Below are positions 3,668 to 64,000 of a stretch of DNA of 64,000 bases, piece by piece. This stretch comes from Candidatus Hydrogenedentota bacterium. Lineage in GTDB: Bacteria > Hydrogenedentota > Hydrogenedentia > Hydrogenedentales > SLHB01. Location: NCBI GenBank assembly GCA_045863295.1, contig BTWA01000002.1:134499-198498 (forward strand). The letters run 5' to 3'. A program made the position numbers and the translations under genes. The notes beneath the pieces were generated by a model, which did not search any database, was not told the origin of the DNA, and saw only the letters and a list, made by a program, of their open reading frames with translations. Positions within the stretch are counted from its first letter, which is position 1. Every line of letters starts with the position of its first letter.

Positions 3668-4558
3668 ATGCCGAGCAAACAGTTTCACGATTTGATGGCC
3701 ATGATGAGCGCGCGGGGGTTGAACGAAAAGCTGGGCGTCGACCTGTTGCGGAAAGGCTTCGAACGCATCGCCCGATTGTTCAACGATCCAGGCGAGGCGG
3801 AATGCACCGAAGTGCCGGCAAACGGAGTGCCTTCGGATTGGATTGTCCCCGCGGGATCGCGAGAACACACGGCACTGCTCTTTCTGCACGGCGGCGGCTA
3901 CATCATGGGGTCGCGCAATACGCACCGGGGACTCGCCGCGCGCATCGCCCGCGCCTCCAGGATGCACGCTATCGTGCCCGAATACCGGCTCGCGCCGGAA
4001 TACCCGTTTCCCGCGGCCGTGGAAGATGCCCTCGCCGTGTACGAATGGGTGCTGGAGCAAGGCATCGAACCTAATCACGTCGCCCTGGCAGGCGATAGCG
4101 CCGGCGGAGGTCTGACGCTGGCACTGCTGCTGACCCTTCGCGACCGGGCACTCCCGCTGCCCGCGTGCGCGGCCTGCCTGTCACCCTGGACGGACATGGA
4201 GGCAACCGGCGCATCCGTACAAGTGAACTCGGTGTTGGATCCACTCCTAACGGAGCGTCTGCTTGTGAAGGCGGCCGGGGCCTACCTGAACGGCGCAAGC
4301 GCGTCACACCCCTATGCCTCTCCTTTTCACGCGGACTTCTCAGGTCTGCCGCCCCTGCTCATACACGTAGGCGGCAGGGAAGTGCTGCTGAACGACGCCA
4401 CCCGAGCCGCGGAAAAAGCGCAAGACGCCGGTGTGGACGTGACACTGGAAGTCTGGGAAGACATGACCCACGTCTGGCACTACTTCGCTCCGTTACTGCC
4501 GGAAGGACAGGAAGCGGTGGAAAAAATCGGCAAGTTTATCCTTGCACACACCACCTAA
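3668..4558 (+). CDS. HSL-family alpha/beta hydrolase (esterase/lipase)
   Basis: HGGGY oxyanion motif, YRLAPE, GDSAGG nucleophile, catalytic His in MTHVW. Confidence 0.9.
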   Translation: MPSKQFHDLMAMMSARGLNEKLGVDLLRKGFERIARLFNDPGEAECTEVPANGVPSDWIVPAGSREHTALLFLHGGGYIMGSRNTHRGLAARIARASRMHAIVPEYRLAPEYPFPAAVEDALAVYEWVLEQGIEPNHVALAGDSAGGGLTLALLLTLRDRALPLPACAACLSPWTDMEATGASVQVNSVLDPLLTERLLVKAAGAYLNGASASHPYASPFHADFSGLPPLLIHVGGREVLLNDATRAAEKAQDAGVDVTLEVWEDMTHVWHYFAPLLPEGQEAVEKIGKFILAHTT

Positions 4559-5440
4559 TCAGATCGGCCAGGACTCGATATCCGACAGAAGTCCCTCGTG
4601 AAAGATCAGCGCCCCATCCACCGATGACTCTTCGCCCGGAGCCAAATCCTTGAACTGCGGGTCCGCATGCATGCAAGGGTGATTGGGGTTTGAAACCATC
4701 GACAACGTGTCCGTATACCACGTCATCAACACGTAGCGCTCCGCCTTGTTTGAGCGGGTCGCCATAACGGGCCAATCCGCCACCGGTTTGCCAGATTTGC
4801 GCCATCCCGACCGATACAATCCCTCCCGCTCGGGCAGATTGCCGGTCTCCGTGACGAGCACCCACCCTTTTTCCGGAACATGAATGAACTTGTTGTCCCG
4901 CGTGTAATCGGCGAATTCCGTGATAGCCCTCAGGAACGCGCACGTTTGCAGCGTGATGCCGTTCAGCGGTTCCTGACTGCCATTCCGGATGTACAGGCGC
5001 ATGGCCACTTTGGTATCGTTCACTTTTACAAGGTTTCCCCCGAAGGCAATGCCATTGGGTAGAACGCGCTCAAAGGCAATACCTTCGTCGATGGACTTCC
5101 AAGGCACGGGCGGCAGATCGTGAAAGACCGTTGGAAACGGCGGATTGATGTGGCTCAAAAACAACAAGCCCTGACTGCTGAATATGGCCTCGGGAAAATC
5201 CAGCCACAGGTAATCGTGGCTGGCCCAAGGCGGGCTGACCCACGCAATCTGCTCCCACGGGTAATGCGGCCTCCACTGACCCGGCAAGATACGAATTCCC
5301 TTGGAGATCGTTTCATAGGTCTCCTTGGGCTCCTCCTCGGCCCACGGTTGGACGGCCAGGACGGCCCCCGCCGCCGCAGACAGCACAAAGGCACGGCGGC
5401 TAACCACCGGCAAGTCCCGGTTGCTGTTGGGTCCCCACAT
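4559..5440 (-). CDS. Tat-exported protein of unknown function, homologous to the C-terminal domain of 19858..21534
   Basis: SRRAFVL twin-Arg signal, GGAGG RBS, shared motifs LDxPEAIFS and PCxHxDP. Confidence 0.75.
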   Translation of the reverse strand: MWGPNSNRDLPVVSRRAFVLSAAAGAVLAVQPWAEEEPKETYETISKGIRILPGQWRPHYPWEQIAWVSPPWASHDYLWLDFPEAIFSSQGLLFLSHINPPFPTVFHDLPPVPWKSIDEGIAFERVLPNGIAFGGNLVKVNDTKVAMRLYIRNGSQEPLNGITLQTCAFLRAITEFADYTRDNKFIHVPEKGWVLVTETGNLPEREGLYRSGWRKSGKPVADWPVMATRSNKAERYVLMTWYTDTLSMVSNPNHPCMHADPQFKDLAPGEESSVDGALIFHEGLLSDIESWPI

Positions 5441-5725
5441 GTATGAATCCTCCCTGCGGTGTTCCGGTTGTGCCGCGCCCACCAAGTATGCCAACCCGAC
5501 GCCGATTTCTGGAATTAACGAGCCTTTTGTGTTAGCCTTCCGTAAACCCTCGACCTGTGCCAGAAACGAGGGGTTTAATCGTCTTGCGGCGGGAAAATCG
5601 CCGCTTTTTCATCCGGGAACTGGACCCATTATACAGGTATTGCTGGAATTCCAGCTCAGGGGCGGTTGTGACGCAACACGCTTTCCTTCGGCCTCGCCAG
5701 CACGCGACATGAATAGGAATCGGAT

Positions 5726-14060: not shown

Positions 14061-14293
14061 CCAAGCGCAAAAGCCTTAATCGAGTACTCAAAAGTGGAAG
14101 TGGTGCAGCCTGCCTTTCATCACAATCATTTGCGTTTGTCGCCGTATGGAAGATTGCTTGGCGGCAATAGAGGGCAATACCTGTTTAGAGATCATGTCTT
14201 GGATCGGTTGGTACCAATTTCGATTCAAAACAACCTGAAACGGCCGGAACAAGGCAGGATGATAGGGGCGATTCGATTGTGCGCAGCTTTCCA

Positions 14294-16882
14294 ATGATCG
14301 CGAGAATTGCAGAATATCCTACCCTTTTGCGGGCAATGGTGTACACGGTACTGTTGATTGTATTGGTTATTGTAGTACAAAGGTTTTACATTGTGGGGGC
14401 GGATTTTGGTGAGCCATTTCTGTTGCATCCAGACGAGGACGTGACGACAGGGCTCGCTCTGGATCTGGTAAAGGAAGGGAAGCTAAACCCCGGTTGGCTG
14501 GGATACCCTACGCTCCACACTTACTTGACCGCGTCAAGTCACGTGGTGAGCCACTTCCGATTCCTTACTGGTGGAGAATACAAGCAGGACTATTTCGATC
14601 CGAATTCACCTCACGTGGGCCGAAAATGGCCTAATATCAATGCGTATGAAGAATTCATGTTCTATCGCGAGGCACGGAAGTTGAATGGTCTTTTCGTCGC
14701 GGGAATGGCAATCTGCGTCTTTATGATCGGAAAAATGCTCTTCAATTCGGCGGTCGGAGCGGTGTCCGCATTTTGGGCTTTGATTTTTCCGAATCTCGTG
14801 GAAGAAGGACACTATGCGGTGCCACAGGCACTTTTAGTCTTTGTATCTGTGCTGTCGATTTATTTCGCTGTGAGGTATGTGAAAGATGGACGGCTACTGG
14901 ATTTGTATCTGGCTGCCCTGTGCTCTGGACTTGCGTTGGGCACCAAATACAATTTTATTCCGTTGGGAATCGTGCTTGTCTCGTTGATGCTTGTGAAGCC
15001 GCTGGCCCGTTGGCCGCACGCTCCCCTTGTCGTGATGACTTCCCTTGCCTCATTTTTGCTATCTTCGCCCTACACACTTCTAGATCTACCGAAGTTCATG
15101 GAAAATTTTGGCGACGGCATCTATGCCTACAAATGGGGAGCTGGTCACACGGGCGCGAGCAGCGTACCGCCGCTGGTATGGTATGGACGAGTCTGGCTCT
15201 CTTATGGCGTAGGATATATAGTTTTGGCTACAGTGGGGTTGCTGGCATTACCATTTCTTCGTGGCAAACAGGGCCTCGTTGTCCTCACGTTTGTCTTATT
15301 CCTTGCGCTTTTGAGTGCGAATATCCAAGTATTGTTCGAACGAAATGTGCTGCAGGCCGTACCATTTTTTGCACTTGGTTTTGGTGCATTTTGTTGTATG
15401 GCTTACGAAGCCGTATACATAATTGCAGGCAAATTTGTGAAGTGGAAGCCCTTGCTTTTGGGACTTTCAAGTTTAACGCCGATCGTCATCACGTGCATGG
15501 CAATGTCCGCACCCATTGCAAAGAGCGAAGCCATGGTACGGCGATTCACTACGCGTACCACACTTCAGAGCGCTCAAATCTGGTTCAACAGCAATGCGCC
15601 AAAAGGAGCAAAGGTAATTTGTGATAGTACATGGCTTCCTGCAACCGTGCCGATTGAAGGCGATAAGTTTGAGGTTACCAAAGGGCCGGAGTTCTTGTTC
15701 GTGAGTCCCTACGTGGACTACTTAGATTACGACTACGCAGTTTCGGCGTTTGGCGGCACGTATGACGCCTTGCCGCCGATCAAGAATTATGTAATAAACA
15801 AGTTAATGGGTCCGACGAGTCGGCTTACATCGCAACCCATTTTGGACGAACTCACCCGCAACCGAGAGATTATGATGAAACGACTACCCTTGCTTGAGCG
15901 GGTAAATCACTTGCCGCCTACGCAGGATAATCGAACAAGCGTTTTCAACTTCGACGTGGAAGTCTATGAGATTCCCAAATTCGAGAAACACGTGCTGGAA
16001 GCGGAGACATTCTCTCCGGATTCGGCAATTGCCGCTGCAATGGCAGCCACAAATTACACACCCAAAGATGCCTTTTCAATGTCTTGGGAAGGCACGATCC
16101 AAAAACAGTTTGTGCTGACCCGTGGAGCATATGACGTATTCATCATAGCTTCATGCGACGTAGGGAATGAATCGCCAAGTCAAACGGCGGAAGTAAGGGT
16201 TGGCGACATCCTATTGCCAGTGGAACTGTATTGCTACGAAAGGAAGAGTTACTTTGTGGGTACTGCGCCGGTCGCGAAGGAAGGACCCACTAATGTATCT
16301 GTCACGCGGGTGGATGGGCGCTTCATTGCTGTGGATAGAATTGTTTTGGTCAAAACGGATTTGGATCCGGATGCGTTAAGCGCGATACAAGAAACTGCGA
16401 ATCAGTTCGCAAGTCCTAATTTGCTAACTAATGGAACCTTTGAGTTGGGCGACCCACAAGCCAGTTGGGTGTACAACGGAAAGAGCGGCGCTGTTCTATC
16501 GCGTGACGAGTCAGTAAAACACGAAGGGAAAACTAGCTTAAGGGTTGAACTCCCGGCTACAACCAATTTTGCTGCCGTACAATATGTTTACTCTGTTTCA
16601 CCCGGGAAGAAATTTCGGTTGCAAGGGTTTATAAGGACAGAAAACCTGACGGATTTTGCCTGTTTAGAAGTTCAGGATAGCGATCGCGGTCACACGGCAT
16701 TTTCTGTGCAATCGACGCCGGTAACCGGTACCAGCGACTGGATCGCGAGTACCGTCGATTTCACCGTCCCGCCTGATACGGAAAATCTTGCGATTATGCT
16801 CCGGCGACCCTTTATCAATCCGAATCAAAGTGGCACGGGCAGAATCTGGTTCGACGAAATAGCACTGAATGAGCTGAAGTAG
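14294..16882 (+). CDS. GT-C (GT39/ArnT/PMT-like) membrane glycosyltransferase with a C-terminal CBM4/9-like domain
   Basis: HPDE motif after TM1, GLALGTKY, many TM helices, FLLSSPY; C-terminal NLLTNGTFE..WFDEIAL. Confidence 0.85.
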   Translation: MIARIAEYPTLLRAMVYTVLLIVLVIVVQRFYIVGADFGEPFLLHPDEDVTTGLALDLVKEGKLNPGWLGYPTLHTYLTASSHVVSHFRFLTGGEYKQDYFDPNSPHVGRKWPNINAYEEFMFYREARKLNGLFVAGMAICVFMIGKMLFNSAVGAVSAFWALIFPNLVEEGHYAVPQALLVFVSVLSIYFAVRYVKDGRLLDLYLAALCSGLALGTKYNFIPLGIVLVSLMLVKPLARWPHAPLVVMTSLASFLLSSPYTLLDLPKFMENFGDGIYAYKWGAGHTGASSVPPLVWYGRVWLSYGVGYIVLATVGLLALPFLRGKQGLVVLTFVLFLALLSANIQVLFERNVLQAVPFFALGFGAFCCMAYEAVYIIAGKFVKWKPLLLGLSSLTPIVITCMAMSAPIAKSEAMVRRFTTRTTLQSAQIWFNSNAPKGAKVICDSTWLPATVPIEGDKFEVTKGPEFLFVSPYVDYLDYDYAVSAFGGTYDALPPIKNYVINKLMGPTSRLTSQPILDELTRNREIMMKRLPLLERVNHLPPTQDNRTSVFNFDVEVYEIPKFEKHVLEAETFSPDSAIAAAMAATNYTPKDAFSMSWEGTIQKQFVLTRGAYDVFIIASCDVGNESPSQTAEVRVGDILLPVELYCYERKSYFVGTAPVAKEGPTNVSVTRVDGRFIAVDRIVLVKTDLDPDALSAIQETANQFASPNLLTNGTFELGDPQASWVYNGKSGAVLSRDESVKHEGKTSLRVELPATTNFAAVQYVYSVSPGKKFRLQGFIRTENLTDFACLEVQDSDRGHTAFSVQSTPVTGTSDWIASTVDFTVPPDTENLAIMLRRPFINPNQSGTGRIWFDEIALNELK

Positions 16883-17279: not shown

Positions 17280-18485
17280 TTAGGGGATTATTTTGTGCAA
17301 TTGGTAACCGTCAAACCAAACTTTGCCTGGTCCGCCACCTTTTTCCAAGTCGACAACGCGCAACAATACATTGATACCCGTTGTGCCCTGCGGCACTGTA
17401 AATAACAAATGTAAGTCCGTCCAGCCGTTTGTACCCGTAATACCGTCGTTGTATTTTACGAATGCCTCATGCCCTTTCAATGCGTCAGACACTTCAAGTC
17501 GTGCGGTTGCCGCGAGCTTTTCGGTCTTTATCTGTCCAGAAAGCACGTACGATTCGCCCTCTTGTACTCCTACTACTGTTCGAATGCCCAAGTTTGAATC
17601 CTCGGGCAACTCAACTTTCAGCGAGGCCTCGCCTACCGCCGCATCATCTGACGTCACCGCCGAGTCAGGCGCGTCGGTCCAACCGTTAAGTGGATTCGAA
17701 GTGTCTTCAAAACTCCCGTTGGACAACAGACTCGGATCTGATGTTGGCTGTACCTCATGTAACGTTACGCCATCAAACCAAACAGTTCCCTTCTTGGCCT
17801 CTTTCACTTCGGTCACAGGCCGACGGACAAGGACGTTTAGCGAGGTCACGCCATTTGGTACTTCAAACTCAATGGACTGCTTAGTCCATTCATCGGCTAT
17901 TACGGGCTTATCACTGGATCGCTTGGCGAAACTTTCAAAGCCTTTCTCACCATCTTGAACTTCAATCCACACGCCGTCCGTTACCCCTTGGGTCTTGACG
18001 TACCCGGTGAGGCGGTAAGAAGATCCGGACTTCACATTAACCCTCTGTCCCATACCAAAATTTACTTCCGGCTCCAGCGCTACTTGGAGTGCTCTCGTTC
18101 CTTGGTAGGCAGTCTTTTGCGTCAATTCAGGTTTGACATCTTTAATTGTATGGAGCCAAAACGCTGGGCCTGTGTCGGCTTCCTGTTCAAATCCGCCGTT
18201 CTGAATCAGATTCTCGCCAGAGACAACCCACTTAATCACCGCTTCAGGTACGGGTGCCACGTATTGAGCTGCGGCAACCGCTACAGGCGGAGGCGCCTGC
18301 GCAGCACCGGAATCGGGCACCGGGACGGGAGCCACATCCGGCTGCGAATCGGCAGTCTCCGGTTTCGGCGGAACAGGAGTCACATCCGACGGCGCGCTGG
18401 AGGGTTCACCCCCACATCCCAATAGGCTGCCCAACATGGCGCAGCTAACCATAGCAATAAAAATGATTTGCGACTTCCTACGCAT
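17280..18485 (-). CDS. Lipoprotein with two CBM4/9-like carbohydrate-binding domains
   Basis: Lipobox LLGC, Pro-rich linker, two NGxFE..WFDG repeats. Confidence 0.85.
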   Translation of the reverse strand: MRRKSQIIFIAMVSCAMLGSLLGCGGEPSSAPSDVTPVPPKPETADSQPDVAPVPVPDSGAAQAPPPVAVAAAQYVAPVPEAVIKWVVSGENLIQNGGFEQEADTGPAFWLHTIKDVKPELTQKTAYQGTRALQVALEPEVNFGMGQRVNVKSGSSYRLTGYVKTQGVTDGVWIEVQDGEKGFESFAKRSSDKPVIADEWTKQSIEFEVPNGVTSLNVLVRRPVTEVKEAKKGTVWFDGVTLHEVQPTSDPSLLSNGSFEDTSNPLNGWTDAPDSAVTSDDAAVGEASLKVELPEDSNLGIRTVVGVQEGESYVLSGQIKTEKLAATARLEVSDALKGHEAFVKYNDGITGTNGWTDLHLLFTVPQGTTGINVLLRVVDLEKGGGPGKVWFDGYQLHKIIP

Positions 18486-33573: not shown

Positions 33574-34380
33574 ATGTTTGGGACGCCCACAAAGCTGTTG
33601 ACCGCGAAAGAGCTGACCGTGCTGATTGGCGTGGCGGCCGCGTTGACGTTGGGGGCGGGCACGATTTGGTTTCTGGGGGTCGCGCCGCCGCCCACCGAAT
33701 CGGCTCGTGAGGCGCCGCCTTCGGAAGCAACCAAGAGCGAATTGCCTGCGCCCGCCCCTGCGGTTGAACCCAATACTCCTTCGATGATACCTCCATCCGA
33801 TCCGGCTCCGGCCCCTCGATCAGAGGAAGAGACCACGATTACGGTGGCGGTTCGCGGTGCGGTCAAGAATCCCGGCGTCTATGCCATGAAGGCGAAAGAT
33901 CGCGTGAGCGATTTGTTTCGTGCGGCGGGCGGGCTGAGCGAGAATGCCGACACCTCGGACATCAACTTGGTGGCTCGGCTGGCGGATGGCACAACGTTGT
34001 CCGTGCCCTGGTTCGCGACGAGTGCCGTCGTTGAAGGGACGCTGGTCGTGCGGAGCGGCACCTCGGGGCGTGTGAGCAACCCCGCGATATACACATTGTC
34101 CAGCGGAGGCGCTGTCTCCGAAGTGGATGCGCCGGCAACGGCAGCACACGCGCAGGCGCAAGCCGCGCAACAAACCGCAACGGGCGGCCCGCTCAACCTG
34201 AACACGGCCACGAAAGAGCAATTGGAAACGCTGCCTGGCATCGGCCCGAAAACGGCGGACAAAATCCTCGAGTACCGCAAGGCGGGTCAATTCAAATCGG
34301 TGGAAGATCTCACCAACGTCAGCGGCATCGGGCCGAAGAAACTGGAAGCCCTGAGGCCGCACGTAACGGTGGGACCGTAA
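33574..34380 (+). CDS. comEA: Competence DNA-binding protein ComEA
   Basis: TM, SLBB domain (VAVRGAVKNPGVY..AGG), HhH motifs LNLNTAT..LPGIGPK and VSGIGPKK. Confidence 0.92.
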   Translation: MFGTPTKLLTAKELTVLIGVAAALTLGAGTIWFLGVAPPPTESAREAPPSEATKSELPAPAPAVEPNTPSMIPPSDPAPAPRSEEETTITVAVRGAVKNPGVYAMKAKDRVSDLFRAAGGLSENADTSDINLVARLADGTTLSVPWFATSAVVEGTLVVRSGTSGRVSNPAIYTLSSGGAVSEVDAPATAAHAQAQAAQQTATGGPLNLNTATKEQLETLPGIGPKTADKILEYRKAGQFKSVEDLTNVSGIGPKKLEALRPHVTVGP

Positions 34381-54486: not shown

Positions 54487-56292
54487 TTAACTCTTCGGAT
54501 TAAGACTCACCACACTGGGCCGGTGCGTGCCTTCGCTGGGTTCGCTGGCCGGGCCGCTCGGGCCCATGCCCACTTCCGTTTGTGCCAGCAATTCACCAAA
54601 ATACGCTTCGTTCGAGAACCGCAGCAACAGGTGCCTGTGGCACACGTTGCATTGGAATTCGTACCCCGGTTCCACGTTTTCCGGCAACCGGATGTAGGTG
54701 CTGCAGAACGGACACGCCACGCTCTTGGCGTCCTTCTCGTGGTAGTTCTGAAGAATTCGATCGATGCGCCCTTCGTCGCACGCCTTGACAAATGCGTCCA
54801 CGATCAACGGATCGAACTGGGTTCCCTTGCCTTTGATGATTTCTTCGCGCGCGACTTCCAGCGGTAGCCCCTTGCGGTACGGGCGATTGCTCGTCATCGC
54901 GTCCAGCGTATCCGCCACCGCGAGCAGCCGCCCTTCCAGGGGAATGTCTTCGCCCGAAAGGCCGTAGGGATATCCTTTGCCGTCGAACCGTTCATGATGG
55001 TAGAGCGCGTACGGAATCAGCGGAATGAGGAAATCGATGTCCTGCATCAGGCGGGCGCCGCGTTCCGGGTGCACCTGCATCTTCTGATACTCTTCATCGG
55101 TGAGCTTGCCTGCTTTGCGCAGAATGGCGTCGTCGATCGAGATTTTGCCGACGTCGTGCAACACGCCGCCCATCTCGCATTCTTTCATCTTTTCGTCAGA
55201 CCAACCGAGAGACCGGGCGATTTCCAGACCAAAATTGGTCACGCGCCACGTATGACCGACGGTATAGTGATCGCGAAGTTCAACGGCGTTCGCCAGGGCA
55301 ACCAGCGTGTCCTGATACGCCTTTTCCAGTTTCGCGAGATACTGCGCGTTGCGGATGGCCGTGGCCGCGCCCTGCGAAATCGCCACAAGTAACTCGAGAT
55401 CCTTTTGCGAGAACGCGTGCGCCGTGCCCCGCGTATCCACATATATCACGCCCAGCGTCTCGTTCTGATGCTGTAGCGGCGTGCACATCGCGGATGTGAT
55501 GTTTTGCGCGATGATGCTCATGCCGGCCTCGAACCGATCATCGCCGGCCGCGTTAAACGTAATGACGCCTTCACCGCCCTCATACGCGCGCCGCACGATG
55601 GTCGAGCTAATCACGAACGTGGAATCGCCCTTGCCGGATTTCACGAATTCCGTGACCAGTTCGTTGGAATGATCGTCTTTCAAAAGTATCGCGCCGTTGT
55701 GGGCCTTGACCAGAGGGAAGATCTGCTCCATCACTCGGGCGAACAGTTTCGAAATATCGCGCTCGCTGGAGATGATCTGGTTGGCTTCGTACACCGCCGC
55801 CAACCGACGCTGTGCATCCCGAAGATCGTCCGAAGTGACGGCCTGCGAAGGCGCCTCGATAAACGTGCGATAGATGTTCTCGGCCGACTTCGCTTCCACC
55901 AGACTCGAGTCGTCGTTCTCGAACTGAACCGGCTTCGACATCGCAATCGTCTGATTGCCCACCGTTTGGATAGGCCGCGGCGTGGTTGCCGAAGGCGCCT
56001 GGTCTTCCATTTCGAATTGGAGATCCATGGGCCCGATTCGAATTATATCCCCGCCCGAAAGCCGGTATTCAAGAATGCGGCGTGTTCCAATAAACGTGCC
56101 GTTGCCGCTACCGAGATCCCGAATCATGGTGCCGGATTGGGTCCGTTGGATTACCGCGTGCTTGCGGGAAATCTGCAGGTCGTTGAGCTGAAGGCCATTT
56201 TCCGGGCTGCGCCCAATGGTCAGCGAACCAACGATGTCGTAGACCCGCCCTTGAAGGGGGCCGTTCAACACCCGGATATGTTCGCGTTTCAT
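54487..56292 (-). CDS. FHA-GAF-HD-GYP cyclic-dinucleotide phosphodiesterase with C-terminal Zn-ribbon
   Basis: IGRS..SRKHA..SGNGT (FHA); GAF; LHDVGK, HHERFDGKGYP; CPFC..CNVC. Confidence 0.9.
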   Translation of the reverse strand: MKREHIRVLNGPLQGRVYDIVGSLTIGRSPENGLQLNDLQISRKHAVIQRTQSGTMIRDLGSGNGTFIGTRRILEYRLSGGDIIRIGPMDLQFEMEDQAPSATTPRPIQTVGNQTIAMSKPVQFENDDSSLVEAKSAENIYRTFIEAPSQAVTSDDLRDAQRRLAAVYEANQIISSERDISKLFARVMEQIFPLVKAHNGAILLKDDHSNELVTEFVKSGKGDSTFVISSTIVRRAYEGGEGVITFNAAGDDRFEAGMSIIAQNITSAMCTPLQHQNETLGVIYVDTRGTAHAFSQKDLELLVAISQGAATAIRNAQYLAKLEKAYQDTLVALANAVELRDHYTVGHTWRVTNFGLEIARSLGWSDEKMKECEMGGVLHDVGKISIDDAILRKAGKLTDEEYQKMQVHPERGARLMQDIDFLIPLIPYALYHHERFDGKGYPYGLSGEDIPLEGRLLAVADTLDAMTSNRPYRKGLPLEVAREEIIKGKGTQFDPLIVDAFVKACDEGRIDRILQNYHEKDAKSVACPFCSTYIRLPENVEPGYEFQCNVCHRHLLLRFSNEAYFGELLAQTEVGMGPSGPASEPSEGTHRPSVVSLNPKS

Positions 56293-56688: not shown

Positions 56689-57741
56689 ATGAACGAATCC
56701 ACAACGGTTCAAGACTTCTTCGGCCTGCGCGAACAGCCCTTTGCCGCGACGGCGGACCCCGCATACTTTTATGCCACGGCTACACACAGGGAATGCCTGT
56801 TTCGCCTCTGGAACTCCGTGGATGAACGCCACGGCATCGCGGTCGTTCTCGGCAACTACGGCACCGGAAAGACCACGCTGCTCCGGAAACTGCTCACCGC
56901 AATGCGGTCTGAGCCCAACCGGTATACGACCGGCGTAATCGCGTGTCCCATTCCGTCGTGGACCAGTTTTTCGCTGTTGGAAGCCATTTCGCGCCAATTC
57001 GGCTTGAAGCCCGGGCAGCAATCGTTCGTGTCTCATGTGGAAGCGCTCTACCGCCATCTCTATGCAAGCCGCAACCGTATCATGACCCTGGTGATCGACG
57101 ACGCCCAGAATCTGAACAAGCGGGGTCAGTTGGAACTGCTGCGCCTGGTGCAGAATCTGGAGACATCCCAGCACAAACTGCTCAATCTCGTGCTCTTTGC
57201 CCAAATGGAGTGGATTCCAGTCTTGCGGGCCGCGCCCAATTTCGAACAACGCATAAACATGACGTATGTGCTTGACGCGCTGTCTATTGAGGAAACCCGC
57301 GATTTGGTGGAATTCCGGATTCGGCAGGCGGGAGGCGGGGAGCGTGCGCCGTTGTTTGACGACAACGCAATTCAAGCTCTTCACGCCTATGCCGAAGGGA
57401 GCCCGCGAATCACCATCAATCTCTGCCGCAACGCGTTGTTGCTCGCGGCGCAATTACGCACCCGCCACATTGGCCATGGCGTAATTCTGCACACCATACA
57501 GAAGACGACGCTCCCCGACGAGCAGCGGCATCTGCGCGTTGTGGATGCACTCGGACTGCTGGAACCAGAACCCGCCACCGTCGATCCGCCCAGCACCGTC
57601 GTGAAGCTGCATGAGGAGGCTCCAATGCCCCGATCCGGACAGTCGCGCGCGAGCCAGTTGCTGCTGAAGGCCGCGCGTACGAATCCCACATGGAGTGCGT
57701 TAACAGGGACCCATGACGCAGGACGAGCACAACGCGCATAG
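56689..57741 (+). CDS. ExeA/GspA-family AAA ATPase
   Basis: FFGLREQPF..DP.YFY, GNYGTGKTT, LVIDDAQNL, QRI, GSPRITINLC. Confidence 0.9.
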   Translation: MNESTTVQDFFGLREQPFAATADPAYFYATATHRECLFRLWNSVDERHGIAVVLGNYGTGKTTLLRKLLTAMRSEPNRYTTGVIACPIPSWTSFSLLEAISRQFGLKPGQQSFVSHVEALYRHLYASRNRIMTLVIDDAQNLNKRGQLELLRLVQNLETSQHKLLNLVLFAQMEWIPVLRAAPNFEQRINMTYVLDALSIEETRDLVEFRIRQAGGGERAPLFDDNAIQALHAYAEGSPRITINLCRNALLLAAQLRTRHIGHGVILHTIQKTTLPDEQRHLRVVDALGLLEPEPATVDPPSTVVKLHEEAPMPRSGQSRASQLLLKAARTNPTWSALTGTHDAGRAQRA

Positions 57742-59914
57742 CGGTGAGTCGCAGCCCTCTCCCACGGAAAAGGATGTCTATGGGGAACTCGAACACATCG
57801 AGAAAGCCTTATCAGGCGAGATAGCGGGCGATCCCCGTTTGGGGAGCGGCGTGCCCGATCACTTGCGCGGCGCCGACTCGGATTTCCTGGCCATGAGCGG
57901 TCTCGAAGACAATGCGGTCGAATCCCAGCCCCGCTCCGACGATCTCGATCCATCCAAACCCGTCAGTTTCTATGAAAGAGGCGTGGCCGACGTCGATTCC
58001 AGCATGGCCCCCGGCACTATGGAAGATGCGTACCGCAATGGCGAAGACGTCAACGCGAAACCGCAGCCCAAGGCCATGGGCGAATTGCGCGATATCATCG
58101 CCGACCTGACGCGCGATATCGCCGGCGAACCGGAAAGACCGTCAGTTCCAGACTCCCCAACGGATGACGAAGTCGAGAAGACCGTTATCGCCATGGAACA
58201 ATCCGCGGCGGAAGAAACCCGGCTCCGCCCGGTCGATCCCGTGTTGTCCAAAGCGGAACAATTGCTTGAAGAGTTGGATGCGCCGCCACCCAAGGCGCCC
58301 GATCGCAATGATTTGATCGTTCAGGAGCCTTCTGCAACTACTCCTGAAACTCCAGCACAGACCGCGCCGCAAAACGATTGGCCGGTACCTTCGGCGCGGC
58401 TGGGGTCGTATGAGGACCGGCAGGACACGGCAAGCCACCGCAAGCGGAGGAAACCGAGAAACCGCCGATTGCGTCGTGCAGTAGGCGCCACGGCCGTAAT
58501 CGCGGCGTTGTTGGCCGGGGCCTTTGTGGCCTATCGAGGCGCCAACTATTTCGAATCGCGATTTCGCACCCCCACAAAGCTCTTCAATCATGCCGCGGCC
58601 CTGGCTTCCAAGGGCGATTTCAAGGGCGCGGTGCAAGCGTATGAGGAATTCGCGGGGCTCAATGGAACGCACCCGCTGCATGCCGAGGCGCTGTTTGCCG
58701 CCGCAGTCTGTATGCAACAACAGGCAACGGGAAACGCGAACCAGAAGCAACCTGTCCTGATCGAGGCGCAAGGAAAATTCCAACGTTTTATAGACGCATA
58801 TCCAACGCACAACAAAGTCGCGCGCGCGCGCGTCTTGATCGGCCGGTTACTCTACGAGACCGGAGCGTACCAGCAGGCCATGGATGCGCTCGAAGACCCC
58901 GAACTTCGCTTACTTGACCCGGGATCCACGGTGCCCATTCTTCGGACCATCGCCCGGAGTCACGCGAAAATGGGTCAGTACGATCTGGCACAGACGGCCT
59001 ACCTGCAGGCCGCCTCTACCACCGGCAATCTAACCCCCGATGTGGATTTCGAAGAGTTGGGCTCGCTCTACCAAAGCCTCTCCGAAAACGCGCCCGACGA
59101 TGAGACGCGGAAGCACTACCAGACACTGGCCATGGAACAGTGGGATCGCGTTGTGCGCGTATCGGGCGTCGATCCCGCCACGAAAAATGCCATGCGCGTG
59201 AAGCTGGATGTGATGCGCGATATTTCTCAAAAGGCGCCCGCGGCCGTGATACCGGAACAAAACGTACAACCGGAAAGTGCCGCGCCTGTTTCATCGCTCG
59301 ATCCCGTCGAAGACTCGGCCATGGATTCGCCGCTGGGCGGGGCGCAGGACCCAGCCGAAACCGTCGGACAGGATGGCACGATCGAGGGCGAGACGGCCGA
59401 ACTCCCCGTTCCGGATTCAGTGATTGCGGATGCACCCGCAATGGAAGTCTCGGAAAGCGCCGCCCCAGAGGGAGAAGAGCCGCTGGAACCGGCCGCGGTT
59501 GTGATACCGGACACCGTTGCTTCCAACGTGGCGGATACCTCGGACACCGAGGAACCCGCGGATACTTCGCCCCCAGGCCACGCGCCCTGGGAGATAACGC
59601 CTCCAGGCGATGCCGCTGCGGCCGTGGTGGAGAATCCTGGTTCGGAAACAGGGGTCGACGAAGCATTACCTGAACCAACTCCCGACGCTGACGAGGCCGC
59701 GCCGATGGATGCGGCGCCGGAAGACTCTTCGACGTCGTTGCTCTACCACGTGCTTCCGGGCGACACCCTCGAAAAAATCGCCAAGCGCTATAACATGACC
59801 GAGCAGGAAATCCTGGATTTGAACGAACTGACGAATTCGAATCTGCGCGTAGGGCAGGTGTTACTTATCGACAACGGGAAACCAGCCGATGCAGCGGCTT
59901 CAACCGGAGAATGA
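57713..59914 (+). CDS. Single-TM protein with periplasmic TPRs, acidic linker and C-terminal LysM
   Basis: Basic stretch then TM; TPR repeats; YHVLPGDTLEKIAKRY..LN..LRVGQVLLI. Confidence 0.85.
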   Translation: MTQDEHNAHSGESQPSPTEKDVYGELEHIEKALSGEIAGDPRLGSGVPDHLRGADSDFLAMSGLEDNAVESQPRSDDLDPSKPVSFYERGVADVDSSMAPGTMEDAYRNGEDVNAKPQPKAMGELRDIIADLTRDIAGEPERPSVPDSPTDDEVEKTVIAMEQSAAEETRLRPVDPVLSKAEQLLEELDAPPPKAPDRNDLIVQEPSATTPETPAQTAPQNDWPVPSARLGSYEDRQDTASHRKRRKPRNRRLRRAVGATAVIAALLAGAFVAYRGANYFESRFRTPTKLFNHAAALASKGDFKGAVQAYEEFAGLNGTHPLHAEALFAAAVCMQQQATGNANQKQPVLIEAQGKFQRFIDAYPTHNKVARARVLIGRLLYETGAYQQAMDALEDPELRLLDPGSTVPILRTIARSHAKMGQYDLAQTAYLQAASTTGNLTPDVDFEELGSLYQSLSENAPDDETRKHYQTLAMEQWDRVVRVSGVDPATKNAMRVKLDVMRDISQKAPAAVIPEQNVQPESAAPVSSLDPVEDSAMDSPLGGAQDPAETVGQDGTIEGETAELPVPDSVIADAPAMEVSESAAPEGEEPLEPAAVVIPDTVASNVADTSDTEEPADTSPPGHAPWEITPPGDAAAAVVENPGSETGVDEALPEPTPDADEAAPMDAAPEDSSTSLLYHVLPGDTLEKIAKRYNMTEQEILDLNELTNSNLRVGQVLLIDNGKPADAAASTGE

Positions 59915-61410
59915 CATTGAACATGCGTGACAAGACGCGGAAGCGCTGGCGCCGCATGGGGCTATCGCTGGTCATTGCGGCCATGGCATTGCTCCCCGCC
60001 GCGATTGCCGAAGAAGGCGTGATTCAACCCGGCGATCTCGTCTATGTCGACGTATACCGTCGTCCCGAAGTATCCACAACCACTCAGGTGGACGGCAATG
60101 GAAACATCTCCCTGCCCTATGTGGGTACCGTCAACATTGGCGGCCTGGGTACGGCGGAAGCCTCGTCGCGCGTGGCGAATGCGCTCTCGTCCATCGTGCG
60201 CGAGCCGCGCGTCACGGTGTCGAAAACAATGCCCACGTTTTCGACGGCATATCGCACGGAAGAAATGAAGACCGAACTGGTGCCATTGCACAATGCCCGG
60301 GCGGAATCGCTCACCGAGGCATTGCGGCACATGACATCGGAAGGTGGCGCGATCGGGTATGATCCCGACACCAACACGCTCATCGTCACCGACTCGCCCG
60401 GCACGGTTCAAAACATCATGGCGGTTATCAACCGGTTGGACAAGATGGAGAGCCAGCTTGCCCAAGTGCGTATTGAAGCGAAAATAGCCGAAGTCAAAAT
60501 CGGCGCCATGAAGGAACTCGGCGTTCGCTGGTTTGCCCAAGGCACCGAAGTAAACGGCGGATATTATCCCATGGGCACCCAAACCGTTCCCCTGCAGTCG
60601 CTTCGCGGAGAATCCGGGAATCCGATTAACAACGAAATCATCGGCGGAAATCCAACCAATTCCAACAACCTGTTCAACAGCACCGGACGCCGGTTTGTGA
60701 ACGAGGACTTTGACCGGTTGCTGAATGTGCCCGCCATGGTTCCCAAAGTGGGTCAGTTGTTTCTCGGGGTGATGAACGGCAACGTCGATCTCGGCGTGTT
60801 TCTTGATGCCCTGGTTGCCGACAATCAGGCCGAACTCCTCGCAAACCCGACCGGCTTGACCGTAAATCACAAGCCCGCGGAAATCCGCATGACCGACGAG
60901 TTTCCCTATCAGGAATTCGGTATCGAAGCGACAGGACGAGAATCGTTCTCGACTCGCTTCATGGATCTCGGCATTATCATGAACGTGACGCCTCACGTTG
61001 GCCAGTCGGAGAAGGGGCGATATGTTACGCTGGAGATGGACACGGAAGTATCGTTTCCCGTGGGAGCCAGCGATGGCATACCCATCCGGTCTGTACGCTC
61101 ATACACCGGCGAGGCCGATGTCATGGACGGCCAGAGTCTGGTAGTCGGCGGCATTTACCGCAACGAAGTACAGGATACCGAGCAGCGTGTGCCGGGAGTG
61201 GGCAAATTGCCTATTCTGGGCAATTTGTTCAAACATACGGAAAAGACGCGCCAACAGACGGAACTCATGATTTTTGTGACACCGAAGGTGTTTGATTCGC
61301 CGGATACGGTCACCTGGGATCGGATGCTCGATTTGTCGAAAGTTTCGGATTCCATGGCAAAAGATCTGTCCGGTGTTTCCGCCCGAACGCAAGAAGTCCG
61401 GAGGGACTAA
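59911..61410 (+). CDS. Fusion of a Wza/OPX polysaccharide-export domain with a secretin (NolW-like N domain + secretin core)
   Basis: IQPGDLV..VDGNGNISLPYVG..PRVTVS; L.NA.A..DPDTNTLIVTD..I.RLD; QVRIEAKIAEV, GIIMNVTP, VPGVGKLPILGNLFK, ELMIFVTP. Confidence 0.88.
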   Translation: MTLNMRDKTRKRWRRMGLSLVIAAMALLPAAIAEEGVIQPGDLVYVDVYRRPEVSTTTQVDGNGNISLPYVGTVNIGGLGTAEASSRVANALSSIVREPRVTVSKTMPTFSTAYRTEEMKTELVPLHNARAESLTEALRHMTSEGGAIGYDPDTNTLIVTDSPGTVQNIMAVINRLDKMESQLAQVRIEAKIAEVKIGAMKELGVRWFAQGTEVNGGYYPMGTQTVPLQSLRGESGNPINNEIIGGNPTNSNNLFNSTGRRFVNEDFDRLLNVPAMVPKVGQLFLGVMNGNVDLGVFLDALVADNQAELLANPTGLTVNHKPAEIRMTDEFPYQEFGIEATGRESFSTRFMDLGIIMNVTPHVGQSEKGRYVTLEMDTEVSFPVGASDGIPIRSVRSYTGEADVMDGQSLVVGGIYRNEVQDTEQRVPGVGKLPILGNLFKHTEKTRQQTELMIFVTPKVFDSPDTVTWDRMLDLSKVSDSMAKDLSGVSARTQEVRRD

Positions 61411-61416
61411 CGGATC

Positions 61417-63657
61417 GTGTTGGCCAACCCCTCAGCCATCGACCAGACCGCCCCGCAAACGGCAAACCGGGACAATACGCTCCGCTTTGTCGTTAACGCG
61501 GGAACGCGCCATTGGAAAATGATCACCATTCTCACGGTGGTGGGTGCGCTGGCTATCGGCGGATACGGGTTGATGACGCGAACCACCCATATGGCATTTG
61601 CCGCCTCCGCGGATCTCATTGTTCACCGGTCGCCGTGGGAACAAGGCATCTTGCAGGACCTGGGCAAACGGCCCATGTTCGAGTCGTCGCCTAAGGCTCT
61701 CATTGATCGCGTCAGCAAGCGGGCCGTGGCAGAAAACGTAGCCCGCGCCCTGGTAGCACAGGACATCGACTCTGGTGGACAGTTCAGCGGCATTGCCACC
61801 GAGACGGAATACGCCTCCAAGGCCCGGCAAATCGACGCCATGCTCTCGCTCGAACCGGATCAGGAATCCGGCCTGATACATGTGCAGACGGAGGCGCTGA
61901 ACGAGCAGGACGCCGCGCGTATCGTGGAATACGCCGCGCGCGCTTTCATTCAGCAGAATCTTAACTTCGTGCGGGAACAGGAAGAGGAAACCCATGCGTT
62001 TGTGCAGCGGCAGTTGGAGGACGTTCGCCAGCAATTGGATGCCGCTCAAAAGTCGGAATGGGAATTCCGGAAGGAAATGGGTTTCCGCACAAAGGAGCTG
62101 GTCACTGAAGATCTCAAGGCGTTGACGCTGGATCTCACCACCGCCGAAACCAAAAAAGAAGAGATCAGGGCCATCATGGCCAGCATCGAATCGCAATTGA
62201 AGGAAAAAGAAGAACAACTCCCCGTTTCGCTGAGCACCATCAACGATCAGGTCGTCAATGAGCTGATTGTCCAGTTAAATGAATTGCACAAAGAGCGGAT
62301 TACCATGTCCGTCGCTTTCACGCCGAACTATCCGCCGTTGCAGGAACTGCAGGAAGAGATTCGGGAGAAAGAAGACGCCATCATGCACGCGGTGCGCGAA
62401 TTGAACGCAAGCGTGGGCACCGGCCAGGACGTGTGGGAAGATCGAAAGAACCTGCGCGATCAGTACGTCAACCTGCAAGTTCAACTTACTTCGGTTGAGA
62501 TTCAGACGTCCACCAACCGAAAACTGATTGAGGAACTGGAAACGGTACTGCCTGGTTTGGCGGAAAAGGACAAGGACTATCAGAACCTGGTTCGGGCGGT
62601 GCGCCAGCACAACGATCAGTACTTGCAACTCCTGGACAAGGAATTCGAGCTCTCCAGTGCCATTCAGCGCGGCAGTGGAACGATAGAGCGAAGCCCTACC
62701 CCTCCGTTTGTTCAACCGAAGCCCCACGAAGGCCAACGCGGACCCATCTTTCTGTTCCTCAGCGGAGGGCTGGTCGGGTTGACGATCGGCATTGGTCTGG
62801 CCCTGCTCCTGGAAGGCATGAACACGTCCATTCGATCCATCGAAGATGTAAGCATTCATCTTGGCCAAGAAGTGATCGGAACCATTCCAAGAATGCGGTT
62901 TGGTCCGCCGACTACGCGCAGGCGCGGCACCTACGTTCCCGTTAAAGATGAAGACGAAGTCGATGCGTGCATCGTTACGCAACACGATCCCAAATCGCCC
63001 ATCTCCGAGGCCTATCGAACCCTGCGGACCAATTTCCAGTTCAGCACGCTGCAATACAAGCCCAGGACCATACTCATCACCAGTGCCGTTCCAGGCGAAG
63101 GCAAGACCACCACAGCCGTGAACATGGCCGTTACCTTTGCGGACAGCGGATTCCGGGTCCTGCTTCTGGATACCGATTTGCGCCGTCCGCATGTGCACCA
63201 TGTGCTGAAAATGGAACGAGGACCCGGGCTTGCGGATGTGTTGCGCGATGGGTTGGACTACAAATCCGTACTCCGAACGACGCGTGTCGAAAACCTATGG
63301 TCGATTTCGGCGGGCCGCGTTCCGCCCAATCCGTCCGAGTTGGTTGGATCAGAGAGGATGCGCAACCTTCTCAATCAGATGCGGAATGACTTTGATTTGA
63401 TCATTTGCGATGCGCCGTCGCTCCTCGTCGTCACGGACCCGGTTCTGCTGGCCCGCGAACTTGATTCCGTCGTGCTCGTGGTCTCGGTGGACAATGCCCG
63501 CCGCGAGACAGTTCAGCGCGGGATTAAGCTGCTCGAGACGGCTCAGGCGAGAATTGCAGGCGTCGTGCTCAACGGCCTGGAAGCATCCCGCCGTCACTAT
63601 TATTATTACTACTACTACTATGAAGACGCGCCGGTGCGCCGCCGGAAAGCGCTCTAA
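61417..63657 (+). CDS. wzc: Polysaccharide co-polymerase / BY tyrosine kinase
   Basis: Two TMs flanking a coiled coil; SEAYRTLRTN, GEGKTT, DTDLRRP, DAPS, GVVLN, C-terminal run of 8 Tyr. Confidence 0.92.
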   Translation: MLANPSAIDQTAPQTANRDNTLRFVVNAGTRHWKMITILTVVGALAIGGYGLMTRTTHMAFAASADLIVHRSPWEQGILQDLGKRPMFESSPKALIDRVSKRAVAENVARALVAQDIDSGGQFSGIATETEYASKARQIDAMLSLEPDQESGLIHVQTEALNEQDAARIVEYAARAFIQQNLNFVREQEEETHAFVQRQLEDVRQQLDAAQKSEWEFRKEMGFRTKELVTEDLKALTLDLTTAETKKEEIRAIMASIESQLKEKEEQLPVSLSTINDQVVNELIVQLNELHKERITMSVAFTPNYPPLQELQEEIREKEDAIMHAVRELNASVGTGQDVWEDRKNLRDQYVNLQVQLTSVEIQTSTNRKLIEELETVLPGLAEKDKDYQNLVRAVRQHNDQYLQLLDKEFELSSAIQRGSGTIERSPTPPFVQPKPHEGQRGPIFLFLSGGLVGLTIGIGLALLLEGMNTSIRSIEDVSIHLGQEVIGTIPRMRFGPPTTRRRGTYVPVKDEDEVDACIVTQHDPKSPISEAYRTLRTNFQFSTLQYKPRTILITSAVPGEGKTTTAVNMAVTFADSGFRVLLLDTDLRRPHVHHVLKMERGPGLADVLRDGLDYKSVLRTTRVENLWSISAGRVPPNPSELVGSERMRNLLNQMRNDFDLIICDAPSLLVVTDPVLLARELDSVVLVVSVDNARRETVQRGIKLLETAQARIAGVVLNGLEASRRHYYYYYYYYEDAPVRRRKAL

Positions 63658-63684: not shown

Positions 63685-64000
63685 ATGCCCTTTTTTCAGC
63701 CATCCGAATATCAGATCGGGCGCGGTGAAGTCGCCGAGAGCCGGTTTGAAGTCCCGTTTATCGCGGGATTCATGCTGTTTTGCGGCATTGGACTCTTCAT
63801 CTTTCAGGTTTTCGTTGGGGACGAATACCTAACCCTTGCGCTGGCTGCGACACTTCTCATTTTCGGCGTCACCATGTTTCGCGTAGAGTTGGGTGTATAC
63901 ATTCTGGTTATCGGGATGCTGCTCTCGCCCGAGGTGGAAACCGGCAGCGTGGGATTTGGCCACCGGGAATTGAATATCCGTTACAACGACTTTCTCATCA
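63685..64000 (+). CDS. Wzy / O-antigen-ligase-like membrane protein, partial (runs off the window)
   Basis: Own translation from ATG 63685: MPFFQ..hydrophobic TMs..MLLSPE..NIRYNDFLI, open to the end; located after wzc. Confidence 0.6.
   Translation, partial: MPFFQPSEYQIGRGEVAESRFEVPFIAGFMLFCGIGLFIFQVFVGDEYLTLALAATLLIFGVTMFRVELGVYILVIGMLLSPEVETGSVGFGHRELNIRYNDFLI

Follow-up and report, generated by a model that had tools for sequence, protein, structure and literature searches.

The window analysed here is a stretch of 64,000 nucleotides from the genome of a Candidatus Hydrogenedentota bacterium (6.3 Mb on 88 contigs), equivalent to positions 134499-198498 of the 322-kb contig C2 (BTWA01000002.1). 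Five genes on the + strand, placed head to tail, occupy its right end; they encode an ExeA/GspA-like AAA ATPase, a TPR-LysM protein, a fusion of a polysaccharide export domain with a secretin, a Wzc-type tyrosine autokinase and a Wzy-like protein. The fusion (59911..61410, +; 499 aa) is the main subject of this analysis. [quoted passage not shown] The coordinates and lengths given in a preliminary description of the window for this open reading frame (ORF; 59911-61410, 499 aa) and for the one behind it (61417-63657, 746 aa) match those found here.

The domains of the fusion were assigned with Pfam and NCBIfam profiles. On the one chain, Pfam recognised Poly_export (PF02563) at aa 34-104 (60010..60222, +; E 9.1e-19, 67.9 bits against a cut-off of 28), a single Secretin_N domain with the ring-building fold (PF03958) at aa 121-182 (60271..60456, +; 49.5 bits, cut-off 28.2) and Secretin (PF00263) at aa 300-461 (60808..61293, +; 128.9 bits, cut-off 27.5). 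SLBB, SLBB_2, Wza_C, STN and N0 (type_II_gspD_N0) gave no Pfam match at E≤0.01. The whole core extends over about aa 148-466, a segment that aligned with positions 303-595 of the 600-position GspD model of NCBIfam, that is, with its last 293 positions; because the alignment ran through these positions, the core is considered complete. At the other end of the protein, aa 37-106 aligned with the OPX models EpsE and pepcterm_export. All NCBIfam matches of the protein stayed below the equivalog cut-offs, which is expected for a chimera.

The N-terminus (MTLNMRDKTRKRWRRMGLSLVIAAMALLPAAIA/EE) contains a single hydrophobic stretch, aa 15-38, and is devoid of Cys. This one stretch together with the zero Cys count, read from the sequence, indicates a signal peptide without a lipobox, and an identity of the fusion as a lipoprotein was rejected on the same ground.

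The fold was predicted with AlphaFold2 (AF2) for the monomer, using an alignment of 22 sequences. The mean predicted local distance difference test (pLDDT) score was 65.5, with values of 82-90 in D1 and 67-86 in the core. Directly after D1, aa 120-178 adopt the strand-helix-strand-strand-helix order of a secretin N-domain. When the model was compared with known structures by Foldseek, the secretins GspD, InvG and PilQ filled ranks 1-20 (E 2.8e-16 to 2.7e-13), with GspD 5zdh as the best match (E 2.8e-16); pIV and RcpA were matched as well. The D1 part superposed on the class-3 OPX protein WzaB (9n9a) with a root-mean-square deviation (rmsd) of 1.0 over 70 columns at 34% identity, and on Wza (2j58) with an rmsd of 3.2 over 95 columns; the Wza-Wzc complex 9r64 was also matched by this part. 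The sequence itself gave the same two relationships in phmmer searches of the PDB, with E 3.1e-7 for WzaB 9n9a and E down to 1.8e-29 for PilQ and GspD. The signal peptide without a lipobox Cys, the N-terminal Wza D1 domain, the N domain followed by a complete secretin core, and the lack of SLBB domains and of the Wza C-terminal helix had all been noticed in the preliminary description, and each was recovered in the present analysis.

In the 22-sequence alignment the mean column identity was 57%, with invariant positions in D1, in the N-domain and in the secretin core. Conservation is highest in the core, where many columns of aa 300-470 are invariant. Right after the core, at aa 464-474, lies a motif P-x-x-x-T-W-D-[RKQ], in which P464, T468, W469 and D470 are invariant in the alignment and the confidence of the AF2 model is low; it may be an S-domain-like element.

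The operon around the fusion gene

The soluble ATPase at the head of the operon (56689..57741, +; 350 aa) matched AAA_22 in Pfam with 64.4 bits. Its best curated match was TIGR03015, the XrtA/PEP-CTERM-associated ExeA-like ATPase (146.8 bits in NCBIfam, below the cut-off of 324.5); a match to any curated ExeA/GspA model was absent, and no transmembrane (TM) segment was found in the protein by a hydropathy script. The ATPase gene overlaps by 29 nt with the gene for the TPR-LysM protein (57713..59914, +; 733 aa; LysM, TPR_16 and TPR_12 in Pfam). The latter is predicted to be a bitopic inner-membrane protein whose N-terminal part is acidic; it has a single TM segment at aa 255-275 (hydropathy script), periplasmic TPR repeats and a C-terminal peptidoglycan-binding LysM domain (aa 678-719, 55.2 bits). 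Its stop codon overlaps the start of the fusion gene (ATGA).

The gene for Wzc begins 6 nt after the stop of the fusion gene (61417..63657, +; 746 aa). The protein is a polysaccharide co-polymerase (PCP) of type 2a with a BY-kinase domain: the BY-kinase model TIGR01007 was matched with 192.7 bits (cut-off 108), and the Wzc, TIGR01005 and TIGR03007 models of NCBIfam also matched; Wzz and GNVR of Pfam gave no match at E≤0.01. It is complete, with TM segments at aa 34-54 and 442-468 (hydropathy script), a GEGKTT Walker A motif and eight consecutive Tyr residues at the C-terminus. After a gap of 27 nt follows the Wzy-like gene, whose start lies in the window (63685..64000, +). The full gene (C2:198183-199676, which equals 4184-5677 in the numbering of locus L002) encodes a multi-TM Wzy_C/O-antigen-ligase-like protein of 497 aa, assigned by its Wzy_C match and hydropathy; it has many hydrophobic segments, and its sole NCBIfam match is a weak one to the IctB family.

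Upstream of the operon and divergent from it lies a gene for an FHA-GAF-HD_5 protein (54487..56292, -; 601 aa; FHA, GAF and HD_5 in Pfam; HD-GYP-like). The NosR-family cyclic di-GMP phosphodiesterase model of NCBIfam was matched with 126.5 bits, below its cut-off of 400, and judged by its domains the protein is probably a cyclic di-GMP-linked regulator of the module.

On the other side, past the Wzy-like gene, L002:5718-8284 (C2:199717-202283) holds genes for a YaeI-like metallophosphoesterase, a KdsB/PseF-like CMP-sugar cytidylyltransferase and a PseG-like protein. These three genes hint at a nonulosonic-acid sugar in this strain; they are not conserved at related loci.

Around the module in related loci no glycosyltransferase, flippase or porin family was conserved, and none was found in the rest of the window. 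The 19 matches to T2SSE, the ATPase family of type II secretion systems (T2SS), that the genome contains all lie on contigs other than C2. A prepilin motif that does not derive from a tool occurred 51 times in the genome; its sole plausible instance on C2 is 21.6 kb downstream, so that none falls within 20 kb of the module. An assignment of the operon as a PEP-CTERM/XrtA locus was considered and rejected: TIGR03015, TIGR03018, TIGR03007 and TIGR03027 all scored below cut-off, and there is no exosortase at the locus.

Distribution of the module and its nearest relatives

In a search of 5.8 billion protein clusters, 754 relatives were obtained at E≤1e-3, of which 120 were listed. The same three Pfam domains were present in 119 of these 120 listed clusters, the exception being a protein of 397 aa. 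Where the listed homologues had a name, it was 'polysaccharide biosynthesis/export family protein [Candidatus Hydrogenedentes]', GspD or PilQ. A scan of loci with one genome per species yielded 80 loci, comprising 28 close relatives (46-64% identity) and 52 other secretins. The 28 are labelled Hydrogenedentota or carry evident binning labels (e.g. Nitrospiraceae, Bathyarchaeia). The module contigs of L030, L023, L027, L029 and others, which are labelled Bathyarchaeia, Nitrospiraceae or Nitrospirales, probably represent errors of binning or classification. A misassembly of the fusion was rejected, as the fusion recurs in 119 of the 120 listed clusters and in 28 independent genome loci.

The neighbours in the 28 loci were identified by phmmer with the window's own proteins and counted with a tally script; the numbers refer to assessable loci only. 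Wzc was found directly after the secretin in 26/26 loci, with gaps of 2-8 nt where the longest-ORF rule did not over-extend the Wzc start. The Wzy-like gene followed Wzc in 23 of 24 loci and was split into two ORFs in the 24th (L028). The TPR-LysM gene directly preceded the secretin in all 23, the ATPase gene preceded TPR-LysM in all 16, and 10 of 14 had the FHA-GAF-HD gene on the upstream side. For the Wzy-like protein the degree of conservation is unusual, with 259-637 bits across the 24 loci and 46-60% identity across the genomes of the phylum. The same order through Wzc was observed in five metagenome loci (L105-L108 and L111) as far as their contigs reach, the Wzy-like gene being seen in L107 and L111. 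It was also observed in a divergent locus of genome G076 (36% identity), in which a Wzy-like match was not found.

Among 135 Hydrogenedentota genomes at least 64 contain a member of the secretin family at E≤1e-60, which is a lower bound because the divergent copy of G076 falls outside this threshold; the corresponding numbers are 44 of the 86 high-quality genomes and 34 of the 66 genera. The fusion is a single-copy gene, except in G095, where it is present in two pieces on two contigs, and its occurrence among these genomes is restricted to families of a single order. The Wzy-like protein (E≤1e-50) was found in 66 of the 135 genomes, including all 64 that are positive for the secretin. The two genomes with the Wzy-like gene only (G044 and G101) are 84% complete, and 69 genomes have neither gene. 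Within genus g30, both genes occur in the same three of eight genomes. The genomes of the phylum are related and not independent, and no statistic was attached to the co-occurrence; judged from gene content, the pattern is that of genes acquired and lost together, as one module.

These data bear on several claims of the preliminary description. A full Wzc directly after the secretin (TIGR01007, 192.7 bits) and a Wzy-like gene next to it (Wzy_C, 33.0 bits, barely above threshold) are indeed present, and there are no pilin or T2SS/type IV pilus genes in view (0/19 T2SSE on the contig; nearest plausible prepilin motif at 21.6 kb). The fusion is not an artefact of assembly, and its homologues lie beside wzc rather than beside pilin or T2SS genes (26/26 assessable loci). 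The gene set named there, secretin, Wzc and Wzy-like, was right as far as it went and had omitted the ExeA-like ATPase and the TPR-LysM protein of the same conserved operon. A canonical Wza serving the locus was among the outcomes that it had listed as speaking against its reading; no canonical OPX gene is present at the locus, the three Poly_export-SLBB proteins of the genome being located on other contigs, each with its own PCP. None of the four outcomes listed there occurred, the N-terminus matching Poly_export well above threshold.

Poly_export gave six matches in four proteins of the genome, the fusion and these three others. The latter are encoded at C14:7181-8521 (in an exosortase locus), at C20:1872-2735 and at C4:166178-167590 (L020:8179-9591; - strand), the last one beside a Wzz/GNVR PCP and a glycosyltransferase cluster. 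It is a protein of 470 aa with an unusual architecture of three tandem Poly_export domains followed by SLBB. All three contain SLBB, lie directly beside their own PCP gene and have no Wza_C match at E≤1e-4. An OPX protein thus stands beside a PCP in 4/4 cases in the genome, with the fusion occupying the OPX slot of its operon, and the fusion is the only Poly_export protein found in the genome with a built-in outer-membrane domain. The genome further contains seven other Secretin matches (six over cut-off) besides the 19 T2SSE matches.

The 52 other loci of the species scan contain secretins with 25-34% identity to the fusion, from Fibrobacter, Pirellulales, Sedimentisphaerales, Omnitrophota, Armatimonadota and others. 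Thirty of these next-ranked secretins were scanned for their domains; the 22 that were left out are further Fibrobacter-labelled proteins of equal size. Poly_export was found in none of the 30, whereas 29 of them showed a match to STN and/or GspD-N0, in part weaker than the curated cut-off, with Secretin_N and Secretin behind it. In those of about 480-540 aa the three domains are positioned like the three domains of the fusion, with STN/N0 in the place of D1. The neighbours were compared at eight hand-picked loci (five from the species scan and three metagenomic), with 59 neighbouring proteins scanned. All eight contained families of pilus or T2SS assembly (PilM in seven, plus PilO, PilN and T2SS C/E/F/K/M/B), and a PCP or Wzy family was found in none of them.

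Among the known systems close to the fusion are the short N0-N-secretin proteins (PilQ/GspD superfamily) encoded at T2SS loci or at pilus loci of the PilM/N/O type, which resemble it in size (about 480-520 aa), in having one N-domain followed by the core, and in sequence (25-33% identity). They carry STN/N0 where the family of the fusion has Poly_export, and their neighbours are PilM, PilO and T2SS E/F/K/M/C instead of Wzc and Wzy. As far as domain and gene content can tell, there are exactly two linked differences between the family and its nearest secretins: D1 takes the place of N0, and Wzc/Wzy take the place of the pilus/T2SS neighbours. N0 is the domain that engages GspC, PilP or PrgH of the inner-membrane platforms of secretins. 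Of the features that define the secretin superfamily, the fusion has the core and the N-domain and lacks N0/STN as well as the partner genes of pilus, T2SS, type III secretion or phage systems.

More distant fusions were sought with aa 1-200 of the protein against 1.84 billion representatives, which gave 2100 matches at E≤1e-3. About 16 representatives align over both D1 and the N-domain, the majority of them members of the family. Two far more remote metagenomic proteins, P0141 (536 aa; 37% identity over aa 1-200, 34% to the whole protein) and P0145 (499 aa; 30% identity over aa 1-200, about 28% over the whole length), both contain Poly_export, Secretin_N and Secretin according to Pfam. Twelve further proteins were checked in the same way, and proved to be 11 ordinary OPX proteins with Poly_export and SLBB and one N0-bearing secretin. 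A metagenome scan with P0272, which belongs to the P0145/P0272 lineage, retrieved no relative; a metagenome scan with alignment A2 retrieved main-family fusions and ordinary secretins only, and a scan of the phylum with P0141 retrieved the main family only (30-39% identity). The search with aa 1-200 also detected three giant proteins, P0132 (3491 aa), P0135 (3580 aa) and P0258 (3589 aa), with 15, 36 and 5 stretches, respectively, that match the Secretin_N-like region (aa ~115-194); the best stretch of P0135 covers aa 160-194 only.

A candidate secretin exit for polysaccharide

An OPX survey describes every OPX protein as Poly_export followed by at least one SLBB domain, and distinguishes class 1, which ends in Wza_C, class 2, which ends in GfcC, and class 3, which ends in neither (PMC9603273); in the published model, class-3 proteins need a separate porin (PMC9603273; PMC12819527). 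The fusion has Poly_export and the pairing with a PCP but no SLBB, and its secretin C-terminus lies outside all three classes. With the Wza-Wzc exporter of the E. coli group 1 capsule and colanic acid (class-1 OPX) it shares the N-terminal D1, a gene beside a PCP-2a Wzc with a Tyr cluster, and a Wzy-family protein in the operon. It differs from Wza in lacking SLBB (D2/D3), the amphipathic-helix barrel formed by Wza_C, and the lipobox; its outer-membrane part is a secretin beta-barrel, and a ring of secretin N-domains would lie between D1 and the pore. With the class-3 OPX proteins of M. xanthus (WzaX/WzaS/WzaB with WzpX/S/B), of which WzaB is the best structural match to D1, it has in common an OPX part without outer-membrane helix and a beta-barrel exit. 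Here, however, the barrel forms part of the same chain and would be a secretin multimer rather than a monomeric PgaA/GfcD-like porin, and SLBB is absent. The fusion is accordingly not classed here as an ordinary member of either family; its periplasmic end would act like that of an OPX protein and its outer-membrane end presumably like that of a secretin.

The part played by D1 is known from E. coli, where cryo-electron microscopy of Wza-Wzc shows the forearm of the Wzc helical arm in contact with Wza D1; deletion of D1 abolishes the co-localisation of Wza and Wzc, and mutations in the interface abolish colanic acid production (PMC12881504). Given that D1 replaces N0 in the fusion and that its gene lies 6 nt upstream of Wzc, the simplest reading is a secretin re-addressed from pilus/T2SS to the Wzc platform. 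That a secretin pore has become attached to the Wzc/Wzy pathway by such a swap of docking domains is, in our view, likely on the basis of the comparative data. We further propose that the module represents a fourth structural class of polysaccharide translocon, in which a secretin would be the dedicated outer-membrane exit for Wzc/Wzy, docked via D1 in place of N0 and assembled by the ExeA-like ATPase and the LysM-TPR scaffold; we give this reading a probability of roughly 0.6. The analysis itself demonstrates the architecture and fold of the protein, its conservation, the structure of the operon and the co-occurrence of its genes; oligomerisation, the contact between D1 and Wzc, the nature of the substrate and what the ATPase and the LysM protein do are what we infer. 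The proposal of the preliminary description that a secretin may be the polysaccharide pore of a Wzx/Wzy pathway now has comparative support and keeps its conditional form.

In the proposed mechanism, the N0/STN docking domain of the secretin would have been replaced by Poly_export D1, and D1 would dock on the periplasmic arms of Wzc. The fusion, Wzc and the Wzy_C-like protein would together form the polymerisation and export half of a Wzx/Wzy-type pathway, while lipid-linked repeat units would be made and flipped by the products of genes outside the module. The repeat units would be polymerised at the Wzy-like protein under the control of Wzc, and the chain would pass from the periplasmic cage of Wzc through the D1 ring, the single N-domain ring and the secretin vestibule into the gated beta-barrel and to the outside. 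The ATPase and the TPR-LysM protein may act as a peptidoglycan-bound scaffold, as in ExeA/ExeB or MshM/MshN, and help the secretin multimer to assemble across the wall. Output might be regulated by the product of the divergent FHA-GAF-HD-GYP-like gene and by tyrosine phosphorylation of Wzc.

The role in multimer assembly across peptidoglycan is plausible by analogy. In ExeA/ExeB (GspA/GspB) and in MshM/MshN an AAA_22-type ATPase and a periplasmic peptidoglycan-binding or TPR membrane protein are likewise encoded beside a secretin; in the present module the ATPase is soluble and the LysM domain resides on a separate TPR protein. ExeAB serves as an accessory of secretin assembly. ExeA-like AAA_22 ATPases, with 125-179 bits to the ATPase of the window, also adjoin non-D1 secretins in ten metagenome loci (L114, L116, L122, L130, L131, L135, L145, L146, L149 and L161). 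The three of these that were scanned (L114, L145 and L149) have T2SS or type IV pilus neighbours in an MshL/MshM-like arrangement.

Several points weigh against the proposed export route. In known secretins it is a pilus, pseudopilus, needle or phage that opens the gate, and no such piston is encoded at the module. The conserved module also contains no flippase, initiating transferase or conserved glycosyltransferase that would point to the pathway of the substrate. With 33.0 bits the Wzy_C match clears its cut-off of 31.7 by a narrow margin, and the Wzy_C family also takes in WaaL ligases and O-oligosaccharyltransferases. TIGR03015-like ATPases are found beside ordinary OPX/PCP pairs without a secretin as well, for instance at the edge of contig C20, and because they accompany such plain pairs the ATPase is not a specific pointer to secretin assembly. 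The confidence of the AF2 model is low overall (pLDDT 65.5) and very low at aa 204-293 (<50). The family has been seen only in one order-level clade of Hydrogenedentota and in a few metagenomic lineages. Finally, solved secretins have 12-15 chains per single-entry PDB structure, whereas Wzc and Wza are octamers (for Wzc, PMC12881504); a 12-15-mer could not place its D1 ring one-to-one on an octameric Wzc. A prediction of the complex between Wzc aa 55-442 (22-row alignment) and the D1-N part of the fusion (aa 33-190) gave scores of 0.29 and 0.30 against a mark of 0.32, without controls, and counts neither as support nor as counter-evidence.

As an alternative, the fusion could be a periplasmic or outer-membrane accessory of the Wzc pathway and not its conduit; it would act like a class-3 OPX protein and pass the polymer to a separate beta-barrel porin encoded elsewhere, with the secretin as an anchor or scaffold. 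The three canonical OPX proteins of the genome are without a Wza_C match (E≤1e-4) and would, by the published model, need a separate porin, so that such porins may exist in the organism. Nothing indicates how the secretin gate would open. We nevertheless hold this to be unlikely: the core of the secretin is whole, no other part of the protein is as conserved (aa 300-470), no porin gene is conserved in the module, and the selection of a whole gated barrel merely as an anchor is not parsimonious. The marginal Wzy_C and weak IctB-family matches, together with the lack of a linked flippase or glycosyltransferase set, would also fit a module that builds and exports a glycoconjugate, with the Wzy_C-like protein as a ligase or O-oligosaccharyltransferase and the secretin releasing a glycosylated protein or lipid-anchored glycan. 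The conservation of the Wzy-like protein (259-637 bits in 24 loci; 46-60% identity) is atypical of O-antigen polymerases and points in the same direction. However, Wzy polymerases have as their hallmark partner a PCP-2a tyrosine autokinase carrying a Tyr cluster (PMC8285477), and the module has no conserved gene for a candidate acceptor protein, which makes the glycoconjugate explanation improbable.

The linkage of the fusion to Wzc could also reflect the co-regulation of surface structures, in which case the fusion would serve a transport system for protein, pilus or DNA whose other genes lie elsewhere in the genome, and D1 would be an alternative ring-former. With 19 T2SSE-family matches for seven other Secretin matches, some pilus or T2SS machines of the organism could be without a secretin of their own, and ExeA-like ATPases do accompany pilus and T2SS secretins. 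Yet the 322-kb contig carries none of the 19 T2SSE matches and no pilin motif lies within 20 kb; Wzc is adjacent in 26/26 loci at 2-8 nt, the presence or absence of the fusion tracks that of the Wzy-like gene almost exactly, and N0, the coupler to pilus and T2SS platforms, is missing. A transport system of this kind is therefore very improbable as the user of the fusion, and an exit for polysaccharide docked on Wzc remains the reading that we prefer.

A role of secretins in the release of non-protein exopolymers has been reported before, since slime secretion depends on PilQ in filamentous cyanobacteria and on GspD in M. xanthus (Zuckerman, So and Hoiczyk 2025, PMC12475490). These slime nozzles are ordinary PilQ/GspD proteins of pilus or T2SS machines; in the fusion, the coupling to polysaccharide would reside in D1 and in the operon with Wzc and the Wzy-like protein. 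The passages of that study that were searched contain no mention of a Poly_export-secretin fusion. Nor did full-text searches of the literature, the scope of which did not extend to subscription-only papers and the architecture tables of databases, return a description of a Poly_export-secretin protein, although databases do contain automatic annotations; several papers apply the word 'secretin' loosely to Wza.

If the preferred reading is correct, the module has a bearing on two questions, namely how polysaccharide gets across the outer membrane if no part of the OPX protein spans it, and whether secretins, as gates for proteins, pili and phage, also pass polysaccharide, an idea that rests so far on the one slime-nozzle study (PMC12475490). 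Nature has here set up an experiment, a secretin with D1 for N0 that is tied to Wzc in one operon, and both questions can be tested with a 499-aa protein and a five-gene module. It would be evidence from natural genetics that secretins can conduct glycans with no pilus or pseudopilus taking part, would indicate that trans-envelope machines can exchange their periplasmic docking domains as modules, and would offer a candidate role for the poorly understood ExeA/TIGR03015-type ATPases in polysaccharide loci. Hydrogenedentota is a phylum of mostly uncultured bacteria, and the module is present in about half of its sampled genomes (64/135).

Other features of the genome and window

The OPX gene on contig C14 is part of a cluster at C14:6084-16822 (L018) that encodes a sigma-54 activator, the OPX protein (Poly_export and SLBB), a PCP-kinase, WecG, a TPR protein of 1070 aa and the exosortase EpsH with DUF3485. 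This is a locus of the PEP-CTERM/exosortase type and hence a separate exosortase system, unlinked to the secretin module. Elsewhere in the window, 33574-34380 (+) encodes a ComEA-like protein with SLBB and a helix-hairpin-helix, which has no relation to the module. At 14279-16882 (+) lies a gene for a PMT_2-type glycosyltransferase with a fused CBM_4_9 domain and at 17280-18485 (-) one for a second CBM_4_9 protein; the region of these two genes has a G+C content of 0.49, compared with about 0.58 elsewhere.

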